DNA of 64,000 bases, taken from IMG/VR virus record IMGVR_UViG_3300045988_107309. One strand, given 5' to 3'. Shown here piece after piece: positions 1,514-12,990 of the stretch. How positions within the stretch are numbered: position 1 is the stretch's first letter; the number at the start of each line of letters is the position of its first letter. The DNA comes from a virus. Below the pieces are notes generated by a model, which was given only the letters and a program-made list of their open reading frames with translations, made no database searches and had not been told where the DNA came from. A program made the translations under genes and the position numbers.

Positions 1514-1851
1514 TACATACTTCTGTTGAAGTGTTAGGCACTGAATATGATGTGCAGGTTGGTAAGCGAAAAGAGTTGCCAATTACAAAAGGGAACATGG
1601 GTGAGTGCAGAGTGTATGGAAAAGAGATTTACTGTGTTCACAATAGAGAGGATAACTGTTCTAAACAGGAGCGTGATGAAAGAACCAGTGAGATTGTGGC
1701 ACATGAAATGTTCCATGCGTTTGCAAATGAAGCCGGACTTGATTTAGATGATGACACTGAGGAAAGAGTTGCTATCTTTTACATGAAAGTGTGGAGGAAG
1801 ATGAACAACGCAATCTTGCAGGTGTTGGACGATAATCAGCTTTTGGAGTAG
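1510..1851 (+). CDS. small HExxH zinc-metallopeptidase-like protein
   Basis: ATG 1510 after GGAGGTG RBS (track ORF 1429 N-terminus overlaps previous gene); motif AHEMFHAF. Confidence 0.5.
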   Translation: MIHTSVEVLGTEYDVQVGKRKELPITKGNMGECRVYGKEIYCVHNREDNCSKQERDERTSEIVAHEMFHAFANEAGLDLDDDTEERVAIFYMKVWRKMNNAILQVLDDNQLLE

Positions 1852-3025: not shown

Positions 3026-3185
3026 CTTCTCTGGTAGTAATGTGCCGGAGAAAACACTCTCACTTTCATGTGTTAGAGATAAGCCAAGTAGGTGTGCTGA
3101 CAGCCCCTCCACTCGACTAACCGCCAGTGGAAACTAAGAAGTACCATTGACGGAAGGTAAATGCGTGAGAAAATGTCAGCTTTAT

Positions 3186-3338: not shown

Positions 3339-3367
3339 TTGACAGCTTTTAGAAAGTGTGATATAGT
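3339..3367 (+). promoter_or_regulatory. internal promoter driving the Y-RNA-like module array
   Basis: TTGACA (3339-3344), 17-nt spacer ending TGa, TATAGT (3362-3367). Confidence 0.6.
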
Positions 3368-3396
3368 GTAAACACGCTGAAAGCAGTGTTAAAGAG

Positions 3397-3528
3397 AATA
3401 AGGAATGTGTAGTAAAAGATTACATCATGTTTAGCTCAATAGGTAGAGCATTATTTTTGGGAAATAAGTGTAGTTGGTTCGATTCCGACAATGTGAAAAA
3501 GAAGTCTTTTACGTTTTTCTTCCTTATT
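3397..3528 (+). ncRNA. Y-RNA-like module 1 (closing helices plus embedded canonical-order tRNA-like domain)
   Basis: P1 AATAAGGAA(3397-3405)/TTCCTTATT(3520-3528); TGTGTA facing GTTTTTC; P2 GTAAAAGAT(3412-3420)/GTCTTTTAC(3504-3512); TTACATCAT motif; upstream of the Ro60 gene. Confidence 0.6.
3425..3497 (+). tRNA. tRNA-Pro(UGG)-like domain inside module 1
   Basis: acceptor TCATGTT/AATGTGA (two G-U pairs), D arm GCTC-AATAGGTA-GAGC, anticodon arm TTATT-TTTGGGA-AATAA, T arm GTTGG-TTCGATT-CCGAC. The 5' acceptor strand overlaps the conserved TTACATCAT. Confidence 0.6.
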
Positions 3529-3542
3529 GATGAAAAGTAAAT

Positions 3543-3669
3543 TAAGTGGTTGTGCAGATAAAGTTTACATCATATTGTCAAGTGGTTAAGACAATTCCCT
3601 GCAACGGAATTAACGTGGGTTCAAATCCCACTATGAAAACAAAAAGACTTTATCGTTTTACTCCACTTA
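3543..3669 (+). ncRNA. Y-RNA-like module 2
   Basis: P1 TAAGTGG(3543-3549)/CCACTTA(3663-3669); TTGTGCA facing GTTTTACT; P2 GATAAAGTT(3557-3565)/GACTTTATC(3646-3654); TTACATCAT motif. Confidence 0.6.
3568..3639 (+). tRNA. tRNA-Cys(GCA)-like domain inside module 2 (acceptor only 5 of 7 paired)
   Basis: anticodon arm ATTCC-CTGCAAC-GGAAT, T arm GTGGG-TTCAAAT-CCCAC, D arm GTC-AAGTGGTTAA-GAC. Acceptor CATCATA/TATGAAA has two terminal mismatches and the discriminator is A, not U. Confidence 0.5.
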
Positions 3670-3684
3670 TGACAAGAATATAAT

Positions 3685-3832
3685 ATTTGGGTTGTGTACA
3701 TTTAGCTTACATCATAAATATCGGTTCGACTCCGATAATTTCCGCATTGGGAATTTGGCGAAATTGGAAAACGCAGAAGTCTTGAAAACTTCCTTATAAA
3801 AGGTTTACAGCTAAATGGCTTTGCTCCTAAAT
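3685..3832 (+). ncRNA. Y-RNA-like module 3 with circularly permuted tRNA-like domain (capped acceptor stem)
   Basis: P1 ATTTGGG(3685-3691)/CCTAAAT(3826-3832); TTGTGTA facing GCTTTGCT; P2 CATTTAGCT(3699-3707)/AGCTAAATG(3809-3817); T arm 3720-3736, acceptor AATTTCC-GCATT-GGGAATT 3737-3755, D arm, anticodon-like arm 3776-3792. Confidence 0.6.
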
Positions 3833-3848
3833 TTAACGAAGAACTAAT

Positions 3849-4001
3849 TGTAGCAGGATTGTGTAGTTATTGTTTACATCATAATTGTAGGTTCGATTCC
3901 TACTTTGTCACCCAAATTTGACAAATCGCCTAAATGGTAGGGCACTTCACTTTTAATGAAGCATAACGATTTCATACAATGGCGATTTTCTTCCTGCTAC
4001 A
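3849..4001 (+). ncRNA. Y-RNA-like module 4 with circularly permuted tRNA-like domain (capped acceptor stem)
   Basis: P1 TGTAGCAGGA(3849-3858)/TCCTGCTACA(3992-4001); TTGTGTA facing GATTTTCT; P2 GTTATTGT(3866-3873)/ACAATGGC(3976-3983); T arm 3887-3903, acceptor TTTGTCA-CCCAAATT-TGACAAA 3904-3925, D arm, anticodon-like arm 3945-3961. Confidence 0.6.
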
Positions 4002-4021
4002 TTTGAATAAGTTAAGTAAAG

Positions 4022-4056
4022 GACTTCACATCTTCCCGAATGTGAGGTCTTTTCTT
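4022..4056 (+). terminator. rho-independent terminator ending the RNA array
   Basis: GACTTCACAT(4022-4031)/ATGTGAGGTC(4040-4049) 10-bp stem, then TTTTCTT. Confidence 0.8.
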
Positions 4057-4089
4057 ATATAAACACATGAAAGAATGGAGGAATTTATT

Positions 4090-5772
4090 ATGGCAACAAT
4101 GAACAACAAACGTGGTAGTGTGAACATGAAACCAGACACCAGAAAGACAGTGAACCATGAGGGAAGTGTGGTACATAAGCTGAATACTCTTGAGACTTTA
4201 TTCAGTAAAGTACTGGGTAGCTTTTTCGGTGAGAAGTCTTTCTACGAGAAAGGGAAGACTGCTGAGAGTGATTTTAAAGAAATTCAAAAGCTGATTGCAG
4301 AAATCCCGGAGGAAGATATTGAGTATGCTCTTAAAGTAGCCAGAATTGGTAGAGAGTATAACATGATTCAGTATCCTTTGGCAGTACTCACAGCTTGTTT
4401 TAATGATGACAGATTCAAGGGTGAGAACTTCCTTGATGAAGAGACTGGTAAGAACAAGTTGCAGACCTACAGTGATTACATTATCCGCAGGGGTAAAGAC
4501 ATTACTGATGTTATGGCTATGCAGATGAATGTGTTTGGGTTTGATGTTGTTACAAAAGGTCGGGGCAAGAATAAGACCTCTCACAGAAATCAGCCACTTC
4601 CTATGCAGTTGAGAAAGGCTTTACAGCATAAGTTGGAGTCCTTTAATGAGTACCAGTTGTCTAAAGCACTGGGAGATAACAGAGAGGTGTCTATGGCTGA
4701 CTGTGTGAAGCTGTTGAGACCGAATCCGTCTAAGTCCAGAGTAGGAAGAGACTTCTTTAAGCAGATTATTGAGGGTACTGTTGTTTTTGGTGGAAGTGAA
4801 GAAGTAAAGCAGGTGCAGAGTGAACTTGCAAAGTCCAACAATAAGAACAGTAAGTCTACAAAGGCTGATGTTAAGAAGTCCATTGATACCTCTACAGTCA
4901 TGGCTATTGTTAAAAACCTTGTTGCACTTGATAAAGCAGGAATGTTTGAGGATAAAGAAGCTGTTGACAGCATTGTGGCTAAACTCACTAACAAGAAAGA
5001 GGTTGAGAAGTCCAGACTGTTACCTTTCCGCTTTTACAGTGCATATATGGAGGTTTCCAATCTGAGTAATTCTGCCGGAAAGAGAAGAGTCTTGGACGCT
5101 TTAGTAGAAGCACTTGACCTGTCTATTGATAACTTGCAGGATATTGAGGGTTACAGTGCTATCCTCATTGACAGAAGTGGAAGTATGAGTCACCCTGTTT
5201 CTGGTGCTTCTAATGTGACAGCAGACATTGTAGCTTGTATGTTAGGTGCTATCTGCTTTAAGAAAGGTATTGCAGACGTATATGTGTTTGCGAATGAGTG
5301 TAGGCAGGTGACTAATATCTCTAAGAAGTCTACAGTCATGGACATTATGAATGAGATTCAGAGACATAATGTTGGAGGTGGAACTTATCTTGATGTTGCA
5401 CTTCATCACTTGAACAGCCAGAGGACAAAGTATGACAATCTGATTGTTTTGTCGGATAATGACTGCTACAGTTCCAGTGGAAGTACTTTCAGACTGAGAG
5501 ACGGGTATGGTTGGGGCAGAGAGTCCTATAGCTGTGACAGTGAGTTGAATAAACTCTTTAACAATAAGGTTATTAAGAAACTTTATATTGATAACCTCTT
5601 AGGTAACAGCTTTGCTATTGCAAACACTGATGACTACAGGAAGAATCTTATCACTGGTTTTTCTGAAAGAGTCATTGATGTTATCAATGTGTACAGTTCT
5701 ATTGGTACAGGTGCGAGTGATGTGAGAAAGGTTATTGACTCCATTGTGGAAACTTTACCTACAAGAAAATAA
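4090..5772 (+). CDS. rsr: Ro60-related protein (TROVE-like helical domain plus vWA domain)
   Basis: GGAGGA RBS 7 nt before ATG 4090 (track start 4075). A roughly 370-aa helical region is followed by a vWA domain with MIDAS residues ILIDRSGSMS, GGGT and LSDND. Size and architecture match Ro60/Rsr, and it lies next to tRNA-like ncRNAs. Confidence 0.75.
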   Translation: MATMNNKRGSVNMKPDTRKTVNHEGSVVHKLNTLETLFSKVLGSFFGEKSFYEKGKTAESDFKEIQKLIAEIPEEDIEYALKVARIGREYNMIQYPLAVLTACFNDDRFKGENFLDEETGKNKLQTYSDYIIRRGKDITDVMAMQMNVFGFDVVTKGRGKNKTSHRNQPLPMQLRKALQHKLESFNEYQLSKALGDNREVSMADCVKLLRPNPSKSRVGRDFFKQIIEGTVVFGGSEEVKQVQSELAKSNNKNSKSTKADVKKSIDTSTVMAIVKNLVALDKAGMFEDKEAVDSIVAKLTNKKEVEKSRLLPFRFYSAYMEVSNLSNSAGKRRVLDALVEALDLSIDNLQDIEGYSAILIDRSGSMSHPVSGASNVTADIVACMLGAICFKKGIADVYVFANECRQVTNISKKSTVMDIMNEIQRHNVGGGTYLDVALHHLNSQRTKYDNLIVLSDNDCYSSSGSTFRLRDGYGWGRESYSCDSELNKLFNNKVIKKLYIDNLLGNSFAIANTDDYRKNLITGFSERVIDVINVYSSIGTGASDVRKVIDSIVETLPTRK

Positions 5773-6490: not shown

Positions 6491-7066
6491 ATGAATGAGC
6501 CGAGTGTAAGAATTGGTTTGTACAGACACTTTAAAGGAGATTATTTTTATGTTACTGGTATCACAAAAGCCAGTGAGGACTACTCTTACAGAGTGACATA
6601 CTTTAATGTGTGCAGACCAGAGTTAGGTCAGTATTCAAGACCTATGTGGGATTTTCTTGCTGAAAATAGTGACTATGAGAAAGATGACGCAGGTGTTTTG
6701 TTTCCAGTAGGAGAGCCTATTAAAGACAGAGAGGATAACATCACAGGTCAGAGTTGTCGTTTTGAGCGTGTGAAAGACCTCAATTTCCAATTAGGAAGTG
6801 TGTCTACAGAGCAGTTGTTTAGGGAATTGCTTTCCAGAGAGGATAGTCCTATCAGAGACTTTGATTTAGAGGGTGCTGAAAGTACTGTTTTCTTGAGAGA
6901 CTATATATGTGGTGTTCCTGTACATGACGAAGTGCATGGAGACTATTTGCAGAACTGGGTACAGTTTGATGAAAGAGAAGAAGCGGTGAAGTATGCAAAG
7001 AGTAAGTCTCTGCCGGGAAGAGTAATGCAGGTATTTAAGAGAATATTACTGAAAGAATCTATGTAA
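6491..7066 (+). CDS. DUF1653-like domain protein
   Basis: N-terminal YRHFKGDYFYV...VTYFNV pattern resembling DUF1653; RBS AAGGAGA. Confidence 0.5.
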   Translation: MNEPSVRIGLYRHFKGDYFYVTGITKASEDYSYRVTYFNVCRPELGQYSRPMWDFLAENSDYEKDDAGVLFPVGEPIKDREDNITGQSCRFERVKDLNFQLGSVSTEQLFRELLSREDSPIRDFDLEGAESTVFLRDYICGVPVHDEVHGDYLQNWVQFDEREEAVKYAKSKSLPGRVMQVFKRILLKESM

Positions 7067-11427: not shown

Positions 11428-12990
11428 ATGAAGCAGGAAATGTTTCCAACACTTCATAGAGGTTCTGACAATAGACTGTATGCAGTGAATGAAGACGGTG
11501 AGAGTGAAGAACTTCTCCCTATGTTCCCTTTAGAAATGTGGAACAGTCCAGAAGCATTTGAATTTGCAGGTGTCAGAGGTTATGAACCAATGACAGCAAA
11601 AGAACTTGAGACAGAGGAAGAGCAGGACGAACAGTTTTCTAATACAGAGAATATCATTGAAGAGAAATTTGACGGAACAAGAGGAATCAATCAGTACTTT
11701 AGTCAGCCAAGTGTTGACGGACCGGAAGTAGGTTATTCCAGAGTATTCAGCAGAAGAATAAGTAAGAAGAGTGGGTTCTATGCAGAGAATACAGACAGCG
11801 TTCCGCACATAAGGGATATTGATGTTCCCGAACTTGATGGTACTGTTCTTGATGGCGAAATGTTCATTAACAATCAGCCTTTTAAAGAAGTATCAAGCAC
11901 ATTGAATTGTCTGTGGGATAAAGCTGTAGACAGACAGCTTGAGAAAGGGTTTATCTCTCTCCATGCTTTTGATATTATCAAGTATAAAGGTATCGACCTT
12001 AGAAAAATGTCTTTGATAAAGAGAAAGCGGTATTTAAAGCAAGCAGTAGAAGAGACTGGCAGTAAGTATGTAGAGTTTGTTCCCTTTTATGTTTGTGGAG
12101 AGTATATCACTGACCCAGTAACAGGTGATAAAGTATATGCTCATGGTATGTTAATGAGTAGAATTACAGAGTTTGAGGAAGACCAATTCTTTGATGAACT
12201 TGAAGAGAAAAAAGAGGTGTACCCTAATCTGTATCAGTGCTTGCATAGTGAGCCGGGATATATGACTCCAAGAGGTTACTATGAGTTGATTGTAGCCACT
12301 GGTGGAGAGGGAGTTATTTTAAAATCCAAGAATGGTAAGTATTATCATAAAAGAGGTTGGGAGTACTCTAAAGTCAAGAAGTTCTTAACAAGAGAGTGTG
12401 TCATTATGGGATTCACAGAACCTACAGACCAGTATGAGGGTAAGTTCCCACATGACAGATGGAGTTATTGGATTGATAAAGAAGACAGAAGACAGAAGTT
12501 GGAGGTTATGAGTAACACCTCTGCAAAGAGCCTTTTAAGTCAAGGTCTTATCCCAGTAACCAGATTCCACTATTACAACATGATAGGTAACATTCGTTAT
12601 GGTGTTGTAATCACTCAAGAGGAAATTGAGAAACTTCCGAAGAGCAAGAAATTTAATATCCAGACTATGACACTTGAGGGAGAAGAGTGTCAAGTTGTAG
12701 AAGTAGGAGACTGTTCTGGTTTCAATGATGATATGAGAAACACTTTCTCATTCTCATGGATAAACAAGAAGACTGGTGAAGTAGTTAAGATTTTGCCGGG
12801 AGAAGAGTCTAATAACAAACACATAATTGAGAGCAAAGATTGGGAGAAATATACCTTTGAAGGTGAAGTAGTAGAGATTAAAGCAAATGAGTTGTTTAAG
12901 GACACAGGTAAAATGAGACACCCTCGTTTCTTTAGAATGAGACCAGACAAGTCTGCATTAGATTGTACATGGAGAGACCATGTTATTTAA
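11428..12990 (+). CDS. ATP-dependent DNA ligase
   Basis: nucleotidyltransferase motifs: I EEKFDGTRG, III LDGEMF, IV LHAFDI, V EGVILKSKNGKY, VI MRHPRFFRMRPDK. Confidence 0.85.
   Translation: MKQEMFPTLHRGSDNRLYAVNEDGESEELLPMFPLEMWNSPEAFEFAGVRGYEPMTAKELETEEEQDEQFSNTENIIEEKFDGTRGINQYFSQPSVDGPEVGYSRVFSRRISKKSGFYAENTDSVPHIRDIDVPELDGTVLDGEMFINNQPFKEVSSTLNCLWDKAVDRQLEKGFISLHAFDIIKYKGIDLRKMSLIKRKRYLKQAVEETGSKYVEFVPFYVCGEYITDPVTGDKVYAHGMLMSRITEFEEDQFFDELEEKKEVYPNLYQCLHSEPGYMTPRGYYELIVATGGEGVILKSKNGKYYHKRGWEYSKVKKFLTRECVIMGFTEPTDQYEGKFPHDRWSYWIDKEDRRQKLEVMSNTSAKSLLSQGLIPVTRFHYYNMIGNIRYGVVITQEEIEKLPKSKKFNIQTMTLEGEECQVVEVGDCSGFNDDMRNTFSFSWINKKTGEVVKILPGEESNNKHIIESKDWEKYTFEGEVVEIKANELFKDTGKMRHPRFFRMRPDKSALDCTWRDHVI

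Follow-up and report, generated by a model that had tools for sequence, protein, structure and literature searches.

Circularly permuted tRNA-like domains with a capped acceptor stem in putative Y RNAs beside a phage Ro60 gene

The stretch analysed here (the window) comprises 64,000 nucleotides (nt) of viral DNA, IMG/VR record IMGVR_UViG_3300045988_107309. Immediately 5' of rsr, the gene for a Ro60 (Rsr) ortholog, it carries a tandem array of four modules (M1 to M4) that share one stalk-like scaffold and hold tRNA-like domains (Table 1). In M1 and M2 this domain has the normal order, whereas in M3 and M4 it is circularly permuted, running from the T arm through an acceptor stem closed by a short cap to the D arm and an anticodon-like arm (T-AS-D-AC). 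In the reading that we consider likely, the array consists of four tandem YrlA-type Y RNAs serving the phage's own Ro60, of which M3 and M4 present a tRNA look-alike whose anticodon is read.

A near-consensus promoter stands 5' of M1, and is kept there in relatives as read from their sequences, and a terminator-like hairpin closes the array. The hairpin, which was not flagged by a consensus terminator scan and became visible on folding, has 14 base pairs (bp) in its minimum free energy (MFE) fold (-19.6 kcal/mol, z = -3.5). With a promoter and a terminator of their own, the four modules, which lie between the tRNA cluster and rsr, would therefore make up a separate transcription unit. The end of M4 is at 3999-4001 and the rsr open reading frame (ORF) begins at 4075/4090, ~90 nt downstream on the same strand. 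Pfam recognises TROVE (4e-14) and vWA_Ro60 (1e-10) domains in its product, whose closest PDB relatives are the Ro60 of Thermus phage phiLo (9KOP/9L5Y, 5e-18), D. radiodurans Rsr (2NVO) and Xenopus Ro60 (1YVP). The array lies immediately 5' of rsr, on the same strand, in every relative that has both on the contig.

Table 1. Features of the array and its surroundings, with the loci in relatives that hold the second permutation.
Feature	Position	Strand	Description
Sigma-70-type promoter	3339..3367	+	TTGACA, 17-nt spacer, TATAGT, TG extended -10; 11/12 consensus matches
Module 1	3397..3528	+	P1 3397-3404/3521-3528; loop 3405-3411/3513-3520; P2 3412-3419/3505-3512
Module 1 payload	3425-3497	+	normal-order tRNA-Pro(UGG)-like domain, 56.3 bits
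Module 2	3542..3670	+	same scaffold; normal-order tRNA-like domain 3568-3640, Cys-GCA here
Module 3	3684..3833	+	P1 3684-3691/3826-3833; P2 3699-3706/3810-3817; TTACATCAT 3707-3715; permuted tRNA-like domain 3716-3794
M3 internal loop	3692-3698 / 3818-3825	+	TTGTGTA / GCTTTGCT
M3 T arm	3720..3736	+	ATCGG-TTCGACT-CCGAT
M3 capped acceptor	3737..3755	+	AATTTCC (3737-3743)-GCATT (3744-3748)-GGGAATT (3749-3755), 7 bp, no CCA; then TG
M3 D arm	3758..3774	+	GCGA-AATTGGAAA-ACGC; A14, A15, G18, G19, A21; then A 3775
M3 anticodon-like arm	3776..3792	+	GAAGT-CTTGAAA-ACTTC, triplet TGA
Module 4	3851..3999	+	P1 3851-3858/3992-3999, extendable to 3849-4001; P2 3866-3873/3976-3983; TTACATCAT 3874-3882; permuted domain 3883-3963
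M4 internal loop	3859-3865 / 3984-3991	+	TTGTGTA / GATTTTCT
M4 T arm	3887..3903	+	GTAGG-TTCGATT-CCTAC; variants GAAGG/CCTTC, GTGGG/CCCAC, GTTGG/CCAAC
M4 capped acceptor	3904..3925	+	TTTGTCA (3904-3910), cap C-CCA-AATT = CCCAAATT (3911-3918), TGACAAA (3919-3925), 7 bp; then TC
M4 D arm	3928..3943	+	GCCT-AAATGGTA-GGGC; then A 3944
M4 anticodon-like arm	3945..3961	+	CTTCA-CTTTTAA-TGAAG, triplet TTT
Terminator-like hairpin	4018..4056	+	core stem GGACTTCACAT/ATGTGAGGTC, 8-nt loop, then TTTTCTT; closes array
Ro60/Rsr ortholog (565-aa ORF)	4075..5772	+	likely start ATG 4090, GGAGG before it
Second permutation, relatives	L173 2105-2250; L232 ~1505-1650; L233 ~1620-1760; L235 ~1690-1830; L236 ~1695-1830		

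All modules are built to one plan. A helix P1 of at least 8 bp is followed by the 5' loop strand WTGTGYA, a helix P2 of 8 bp, the segment TTACATCAT, the payload, the 3' strand of P2, the 3' loop strand GNTTTNCT and the 3' strand of P1. P1 and P2 vary in sequence from module to module with pairing retained, and the loop strands and TTACATCAT are near-constant, so that the stalk has a conserved internal loop of 7x8 nt (WUGUGYA / GNUUUNCU) and, beyond P2, the segment UUACAUCAU. Part of TTACATCAT serves as the 5' acceptor strand in M1 and M2; in the MFE folds of M3 and M4 its AUC pairs with GAU or GGU in the 3' linker, with the tRNA-like body between. The initial annotation had placed normal-order Pro-UGG-like and Cys-GCA-like domains in M1 and M2 and read the scaffold as carrying two topologies. 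Indeed, both ARAGORN and Rfam call the two domains as Pro-TGG and Cys-GCA tRNAs, and the pairing of one scaffold with two topologies is conserved. The M1 acceptor has 7 bp, CCA is encoded in neither M1 nor M2, and A73 is found in all modules. The window's M2 has the mismatches C1.A72 and A2.A71 (3568-3574 / 3632-3638); the first of these, otherwise typical of bacterial initiator tRNA, is retained in M2-type domains.

The segments that the initial annotation had listed for the permuted domains of M3 and M4 are all present when each is indexed, including D arms at the expected place, with the correction that the D stems have 4 bp and not 3 (position 13:22 being A.A in M3 and U.G in M4). All parsed copies have U8, A14, A15:U48, G18, G19, A21, T54, T55, C56, R57, A58 and G53-C61. 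tRNA residues 44-45 (C-A) lie on the 3' exit strand and 46-48 on the 5' entry strand, U48 standing opposite A15. The break in the chain, proposed from the start to lie at the variable-arm position, is found there and is conserved in relatives; it falls in the variable region, so that the whole anticodon arm is retained. M3 acceptors vary in a compensatory manner (AATTGCT/AGCAATT, AATTCTC/GAGAATT, ATTCGGC/GCCGATT).

We collected relatives by Ro60-based searches, by a pattern specific to the permuted topology and through relatives of the Ro60 of one divergent locus, L173 (loci in relatives carry L numbers), the sources being IMG/VR and the metagenome assemblies of ENA and Logan, of which some carry a human gut label. 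Ro60 has many further relatives beyond these. Plain MAFFT put the variable loops out of register and was replaced by equal-length sequences with N-padded variable loops; the pair counts rest on our own parse of stems and loops. Every permuted copy parses into identical fixed-length stems. In the registered alignment of 23 distinct M3/M4 copies, standard pairs fill 95.7% of cells, as compared with 67.3 +/- 1.2% in shuffles, none of 500 of which reached the observed value, and 34-45% with slid partners. Both-side changes occur in 25 of the 37 pairs. Pairing is complete in P2, the T arm and the anticodon arm (100% each) and amounts to 92.9% in P1, 92.5% in the acceptor and 87% in the D arm; both-side changes are seen in all 5 pairs of the anticodon-like helix and in six acceptor pairs. 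Divergent loci, with Ro60 67-79% identical, add further compensatory stems (anticodon TACCT/AGGTA in L159 and ACAGT/ACTGT; acceptor TCCGTGC/GCACAGA), and the permuted layout is kept down to 67% Ro60 identity and shared by more than 20 distinct sequences from independent metagenomes. The MFE folds of M3 and M4 likewise recover the full layout, including P1 and P2, and the M4 fold stands out from shuffles (z = -3.8; none of 200 equally good). Both the arms expected from the initial annotation and the permuted order itself hold up on folding and in related phages.

Scored with a covariance model of the permuted core, M3 reaches 84.9 bits and M4 82 bits, as compared with 29-38 bits for the junctions of adjacent ordinary tRNAs in the window. 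Together with the modules of L157, L160 and L161 the window's M3 and M4 span 82-87 bits; L159 scores 75.6 bits and partly degenerate L158 copies 50-57 bits, while ordinary tRNA-tRNA junctions and canonical phage YrlAs reach 29-49 bits. An ordinary tRNA-tRNA junction is ruled out by these scores and by the complementary acceptor strands.

The anticodon loops behave differently from module to module. Loop positions 32, 33, 37 and 38 are conserved (C/A-U ... A-A) while 34-36 change. The M1 triplet, UGG, is invariant, its loop TTTGGGA being identical in 15 copies, and the M3 triplet, UGA, is nearly so. At the M2 loop (3599-3605 in the window) relatives carry GCA, TCC, AAC, GTT, GTC and TCA, as well as TTT in L132; at the M4 loop (3950-3956) they carry TTT, GCT, GTT, TGT, ACG and TGA. 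When near-identical relatives are compared, differences at 34-36 and elsewhere number 11/33 vs 14/1232 for M4 (33% vs 1.1%) and 13/39 vs 13/1040 for M2 (33% vs 1.25%), and at 34-36 there are 0/30 for M3 and 0/27 for M1. The M2 and M4 triplets switch ~30-fold faster than other positions, and in one M4 cluster two of the three anticodon columns vary as against none of the 112 others (Fisher p = 0.0005). In the close clade, the M4 triplets TTT, GCT, GTT and TGT equal the anticodons of the free-standing cluster tRNAs Lys-TTT, Ser-GCT, Asn-GTT and Thr-TGT; a uniform model puts the chance of this match at ~2e-5, a figure that is post hoc and ignores base composition.

Some loops are irregular. Some M1- or M2-type domains have anticodon loops of 6 or 8 nt, M2 of L134 and L146 having the 8-nt loop CTTTCCAC, and ARAGORN reports a 4-base anticodon, tgac, in L157 (2423-2496) and a 2-base anticodon in L161 (2502-2573). 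The M2 triplet of L154 and L161, TCA, would read UGA.

The M4 cap opens with C-CCA, as had been noted initially. In 9 of the 13 distinct M4 variants of the first sample the cap consists of N73-CCA and 3-7 A/T, with C-CCA, G-CCA and A-CCA occurring across lineages that differ in their acceptors; CCA is encoded in none of the window's free-standing tRNA genes. In M. smegmatis, RNase P cuts YrlA both in vivo and in vitro, the RNA gains CCA, and its two halves stay bound to Rsr (Chen et al., PMC4201824). M4 resembles it in the 7-bp acceptor and the T at -1, and by analogy RNase P probably nicks M4 in the cap, with trimming to CCA; here the CCA is encoded in the cap, as opposed to gained. On the M. 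smegmatis model, nicked M4 would be a two-piece RNA held together by its acceptor stem and stalk. Alternatively, an encoded CCA could shield the loop from RNase Z.

YrlA RNAs are defined by linkage to Ro60 and by a 5' GNCGAAN0-1G motif, YUAY and an optional 'V' stem-loop, followed by a T arm, a closed acceptor-like stem and a D arm (PMC4201824). M3 and M4 have a Ro60/TROVE gene within ~4 kb on their own strand; Chen et al. relied on the same criterion of proximity on one strand (PMC4201824). Like YrlA (Rfam RF02553), they stand beside Ro60 as tandem copies 5' of rsr, with a stalk that carries a putative motif of Ro60-binding type and then YUAY, here UUAC. This UUAC lies inside TTACATCAT in all window-clade modules collected by the scaffold pattern, and the region reads TCTACATCAT in L132, ATACATC in L065 and L159, and TTCCATCAT in L232 and L234; in its loose form, TGTGYA-N8-TTACATCAT, the pattern is dominated by chance matches. 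The order of T arm, closed acceptor stem-loop and D arm is also that of YrlA, with the tertiary nucleotides U8, A14, G18, G19, U54, U55, C56 and A58 and the 15:48 pair, and the 7-bp acceptor is matched in M. smegmatis YrlA. In canonical YrlA, however, the chain enters and leaves through the anticodon-stem equivalent, from which the stalk continues, and there is no anticodon loop, whereas the stalk of M3 and M4 leaves at the variable loop and a hairpin of 5 bp and 7 nt follows A26. Indeed, in the Rfam alignment of M4 the expected anticodon-stem pairs are marked as non-pairing. Where canonical YrlA has GNCGAAN0-1G there is a conserved WTGTGYAS (WUGUGYAS in the RNA), which aligns with TGGTGTAG/GGTGAAG of phage YrlAs that Rfam detects. 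These include Xanthomonas phage Tabio, with YrlA matches of 52 and 37 bits 5' of its Ro60, and L173, with 38 bits. The Tabio scaffold TGGTGTAG-N7-TTACTTCG and the window scaffold TTGTGTAG-N7-TTACATCA have the motif TGGTGTAG-N7-TTAC in common, and the module scaffold is homologous to the YrlA scaffolds of other phages.

Several observations weigh against so reading M3 and M4. The Rfam YrlA model gives M4 24.6 bits (E 0.0086), below its gathering score of 69, and has no match on M3; the canonical GNCGAAN0-1G motif is absent as such from both. The M3 fold taken alone is weak (z = -1.4), and the covariation count comes largely from the M3-vs-M4 contrast and from related sequences, the cells not being independent events. 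CCA has been lost from the M4 cap in several lineages (GCGTT, GCATT, GCCG..., GTAAT, GTGTT, ACAGG). The variability of the M2 and M4 anticodons, lastly, could in part reflect relaxed constraint rather than selection, although unpaired fixed-length positions elsewhere change ~30-fold less than these triplets. Even so, the neighbouring Ro60 ortholog, the Rfam match on M4 and the Tabio scaffold motifs bear out the initial annotation's simplest reading, a tRNA mimic of the YrlA type; its qualifier 'non-aminoacylatable' is not established for M4, where the acceptor is of 7 bp with N73-CCA and a T precedes +1. On this evidence M3 and M4 are most likely YrlA-type Y RNAs and a new topological variant of the YrlA class, not a new class. 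YrlA has been described as a circularly permuted tRNA with a closed acceptor, in a crystal-structure paper that notes the lack of an anticodon loop (10.1101/312249), and permutation as such is therefore not new. What is new is the intact anticodon arm that a break in the variable region allows, as against canonical YrlA without an anticodon loop, and a single scaffold family that holds normal tRNAs, two permutations and non-tRNA inserts. The fast switching of the M2 and M4 triplets beside frozen ones in M1 and M3, and the N73-CCA usual in the M4 cap, are likewise new.

Indeed, four kinds of payload occur within the scaffold family: normal tRNAs, the T-AS-D-AC permutation, a second permutation and non-tRNA inserts. 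The T-AS-D-AC permutation is limited to the window's clade, where the rsr-proximal module always has it. The second permutation is found in a sister clade, with Ro60 62% identical, and runs from the anticodon arm through a 5-nt variable loop and the T arm to a 7-bp closed acceptor and the D arm, with the break at 26/27. It is 98.1% paired, with 13 of 21 pairs compensatory and 0 of 500 shuffles as well paired, and the MFE fold agrees; its cap in L235 reads A-CCA-C. A pattern search for it (TTACATCATN{18,32}GGTTC...) returned 52 stretches, with the scaffold only in the L173 contig; the recurrent matches inspected among the others, with a 48-nt span, belong to coding sequence of an abundant unrelated phage, and all remaining ones were dismissed by the missing scaffold motif alone. 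Many copies of both permutations share, at acceptor position 5:68, a non-Watson-Crick pair, C.A or A.A (TCCGTCA/TGACAGA in M4-type domains; L232/L233), which suggests common ancestry of the two permuted bodies. Non-tRNA inserts occupy L157 module 1 (~2270-2395), L158 module 1 (~195-305), L159 module B (~2685-2790) and the last modules of L173 and L232-L236. They are short, YrlB-like hairpins; the second module of L173 has a lone CTCC-CTGCTAA-GGAG hairpin with an anticodon-like loop.

In the second YrlA match of Tabio (L179 2828-2936), the 'V' region reads TTCGA-CTGTTAA-TCGAG followed by AGGTC (5 nt) and the T arm, which is the geometry of an anticodon arm; the 'V' stem-loop of published YrlAs may therefore, in some members, be such an arm. 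In the distant gut phage csAssE-Sib (L177, OR575929.1, 2440-2900), whose Ro60 is 24% identical, genes annotated as tRNA-Tyr (2621-2693) and tRNA-Lys (2766-2839) lie just 5' and are flanked by YrlA-like scaffold motifs (GGTGAGG...GGTTACTTCG); these are probably Y-RNA payloads and not free tRNA genes. Brevundimonas phage Domovoi (L180) has an Rfam match to permuted transfer-messenger RNA (tmRNA) of 60 bits near its Ro60 gene (6790-7045), and at 2300-2950 three or four tandem YrlA-like modules 5' of Ro60, one with a 4-bp/5-nt hairpin directly after the D arm. A tRNA body can be inserted into the scaffold at four points, namely the acceptor end, the anticodon loop, 26/27 and the variable region.

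Among other known RNAs, the counterpart of M1 and M2 is D. radiodurans Yrn1, with a normal-order tRNA-like part (D, anticodon-like, T) and the stalk at the acceptor end. Yrn1 differs in its 6-nt 'anticodon' loop and in lacking a full D arm, and Chen et al. deemed it independent of YrlA (PMC4201824), whereas here both orientations occur within one homologous scaffold and one array. Thermus phage phiLo, which has the closest solved relative of the protein, also carries a phage Ro60 with tandem Y-like RNAs (Yrl1/Yrl2) directly 5', and its Ro60 binds both of them as well as host PNPase, a precedent for the reading preferred here; the available part of that report describes the Yrls as stem-bulge-stem RNAs with a CGAA motif and contains no report of a tRNA-like domain (PMC12135203). 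Class II tRNAs, with their long variable arm, show that the tRNA fold tolerates a helix between positions 45 and 48, but in M3 and M4 this arm is open-ended and bears the chain termini. Two-piece tmRNA is likewise a permuted, two-piece tRNA-like RNA in bacteria, whereas M3 and M4 have no evident mRNA-like part or link to SmpB.

The remainder of the window belongs to a tailed phage whose large ORFs all lie on the + strand, among them those for terminase, portal, capsid, PolA, primase, DnaB, RecA and dUTPase. An ATP-dependent ligase-family protein of 520 aa is encoded at 11428-12990, 5.7 kb 3' of rsr (DNA_ligase_A_M 1.7e-15); it was the only such candidate, of DNA-ligase family, among the 24 window ORFs scanned, which include no RtcB. 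DNA similarity searches of the window against GenBank phages gave no match, and scans of isolate genomes and metagenome-assembled genomes found nothing save one 2.8-kb fragment binned as Spirochaetia. ARAGORN and Rfam together call eight ordinary tRNAs in the window, those of M1 and M2 among them. Within 3684-4001 ARAGORN, which seeks standard-order tRNAs, makes no call, and the Rfam tRNA model yields on M3/M4 only a sub-threshold chimera across both (25.7 bits vs the 29-bit threshold). Spacers of 160-450 nt between the free-standing tRNA genes 5' of the array (2108-2560, 2634-2863, 3027-3185) are without a convincing ORF. Free-standing tRNA genes (Glu-TTC, Asp-GTC) also occur between scaffold modules in L003-L005 (2263-2440) and L157 (2533-2602), and array and tRNA cluster therefore intermingle in some relatives. 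We could discard a cis-acting rsr leader, given the array's own promoter, terminator and modular build, and an attachment-site tRNA fragment, no integrase being seen among the 24 ORFs scanned. A gene on the minus strand is discarded too: the M4 minus strand folds nearly as well as the plus strand, so that energy alone is indecisive, but T-loop and D-loop motifs, promoter, rsr and G.U pairs all point to the + strand.

From this anatomy we infer how the array might work. The region from ~3370 to 4056 would be transcribed from promoter to terminator and presumably cut into single modules, each a stalk with a payload. The stalk, as the counterpart of YrlA's Ro60-binding module, is the predicted contact with Ro60. 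The payload of M3 and M4 would be a whole tRNA-shaped domain, with the stalk leaving at the variable-loop position as an oversized, open-ended variable arm. Once bound to Ro60, the domain would display a tRNA look-alike, anticodon loop included, to tRNA-recognising proteins, and the anticodon would be a part of the recognised surface that is frozen in M1 and M3 and fast-switching in M2 and M4. Phage tRNAs have been proposed to counter host anticodon nucleases (PMC10264068, PMC11555353) and Ro60 has been linked to RNA repair platforms (PMC7824862); of the readings compatible with the data, the most interesting is therefore a bait or decoy role, in which the array would supply Ro60-tethered anticodon-arm baits in a phage-host conflict over tRNAs. 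We offer this as a tentative possibility. Each module would then display the anticodon stem-loop of a tRNA attacked by host anticodon nucleases or other tRNA-targeting defences, and the triplet would be re-tuned fast as hosts change. M2 and M4 would switch triplets on a constant body because the triplet tracks changing hosts, and the reading would also account for M4 mirroring the phage's spare tRNAs (Lys-UUU, Ser-GCU, Asn-GUU, Thr-UGU). Ro60, holding the nicked look-alike, could titrate the nuclease, shield the ends, or pass the pieces to a nuclease or ligase.

It is rather unlikely, in our view, that the tRNA fold is structural ballast, stabilising the Y RNA or recruiting an elbow-binding factor or PNPase (RYPER-like), with the anticodon hairpin as a leftover whose triplet drifts neutrally where it is unread. 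Stability is among the roles that Chen et al. proposed for the tRNA fold (PMC4201824), phiLo Ro60 binds its two upstream Y-like RNAs and host PNPase (PMC12135203), canonical YrlAs function without an anticodon loop (10.1101/312249), and some scaffolds of relatives hold non-tRNA inserts. A leftover hairpin, however, fits poorly with an anticodon arm whose pairing is 100% and whose five pairs all show compensatory changes, with a loop fixed at 32, 33, 37 and 38 while 34-36 vary, with M1 and M3 triplets that stay frozen while those of M2 and M4 change ~30-fold faster than other positions, or with close-clade M4 triplets that all match the free-standing tRNA set. The opposite view, that M4 is a working two-piece tRNA, seems improbable to us. 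RNase P would cut its cap, the 3' end would be trimmed to CCA, and the nicked molecule would be aminoacylated and translate with the stalk as a giant variable arm. The cleaved and CCA-tailed M. smegmatis YrlA is potentially aminoacylatable according to Chen et al. (PMC4201824), and in M4 the acceptor is of 7 bp, most variants have N73-CCA, a T stands at -1, the anticodon loop is complete, with U33 and A37, and the anticodons mirror those of real phage tRNAs. Against it stand A73 in all modules, the lineages without CCA, the short caps (4-5 nt) of M3, which have no CCA, and the bulk that a ~16-bp stalk with a Ro60 ring would presumably have on the ribosome. The M4 body, moreover, is unchanged under anticodons for Lys, Ser, Asn and Thr, and one body with these anticodons fits the identity rules of several synthetases poorly.

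The bolder alternative of the initial annotation, a genuine permuted tRNA gene that needs circularisation, finds no support here and we give it very little credence. In this case the P1 ends would be joined into a circle and the cap removed, leaving an ordinary tRNA. The bulge-helix-bulge (BHB) geometry of such a junction is 3-4-3, whereas M3 and M4 have the conserved 7x8-nt internal loop between 8-bp helices, which is no BHB. This junction is common to modules with normal tRNAs or non-tRNA inserts and homologous to YrlA scaffolds; joining at P1 would leave a stalk of ~60 nt inside the tRNA, and RtcB is missing from the ORFs scanned. It is true that the permuted genes of C. merolae (Cyanidioschyzon), green algae and T. 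pendens (Thermofilum) also place the 3' half before the 5' half and close the acceptor by a short intervening sequence, which RNase P and a 3' nuclease could remove, and that some, two in T. pendens, encode CCA (PMC3978253). Yet the known cases, in algae and one archaeon only, need a BHB at leader and trailer and the tRNA-splicing endonuclease, and pass through a circular intermediate to a normal tRNA (PMC3978253), while the setting here is a bacterial host and a stalk of protein-binding type. Next to no probability attaches, finally, to an array without function, be it a chance likeness, the junction of two decayed tRNA genes or a relic of tandem duplication. The permuted-core model does pick up ordinary tRNA-tRNA junctions, and a dimeric-tRNA origin is published for YrlA (10.1101/312249), but the acceptor strands are complementary over 7 bp with both-side changes in six pairs, real junctions score 29-38 bits against 82-85 bits here, and the layout is kept in more than 20 distinct sequences from independent metagenomes.

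The reason for tRNA mimicry among bacterial and phage Y RNAs has been a question since 2014, and attention has gone to the tRNA elbow because canonical YrlAs have no anticodon loop. In this gut-phage clade the anticodon arm is complete, and its triplet is a variable cassette in two modules and fixed in two others; the anticodon loop is therefore indicated as a read-out surface. If true, the bait reading would for the first time give a functional reason why Y RNAs mimic tRNA. Several permutations on one Ro60 stalk amount to a natural experiment on which tRNA surfaces need exposure. They also lend support to the published model that YrlA arose from tandem, or dimeric, tRNAs (10.1101/312249), because a tandem duplicate gives the order T arm, 3' acceptor strand, N73-CCA, spacer, 5' acceptor strand, D arm and anticodon arm. 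Some annotated 'tRNA genes' beside phage Ro60 are probably Y-RNA payloads, Pro and Cys here and Tyr and Lys in csAssE-Sib. With an intact anticodon arm, multiple permutations, anticodon switching and an encoded CCA, the function of tRNA mimicry in Y RNAs becomes experimentally approachable.

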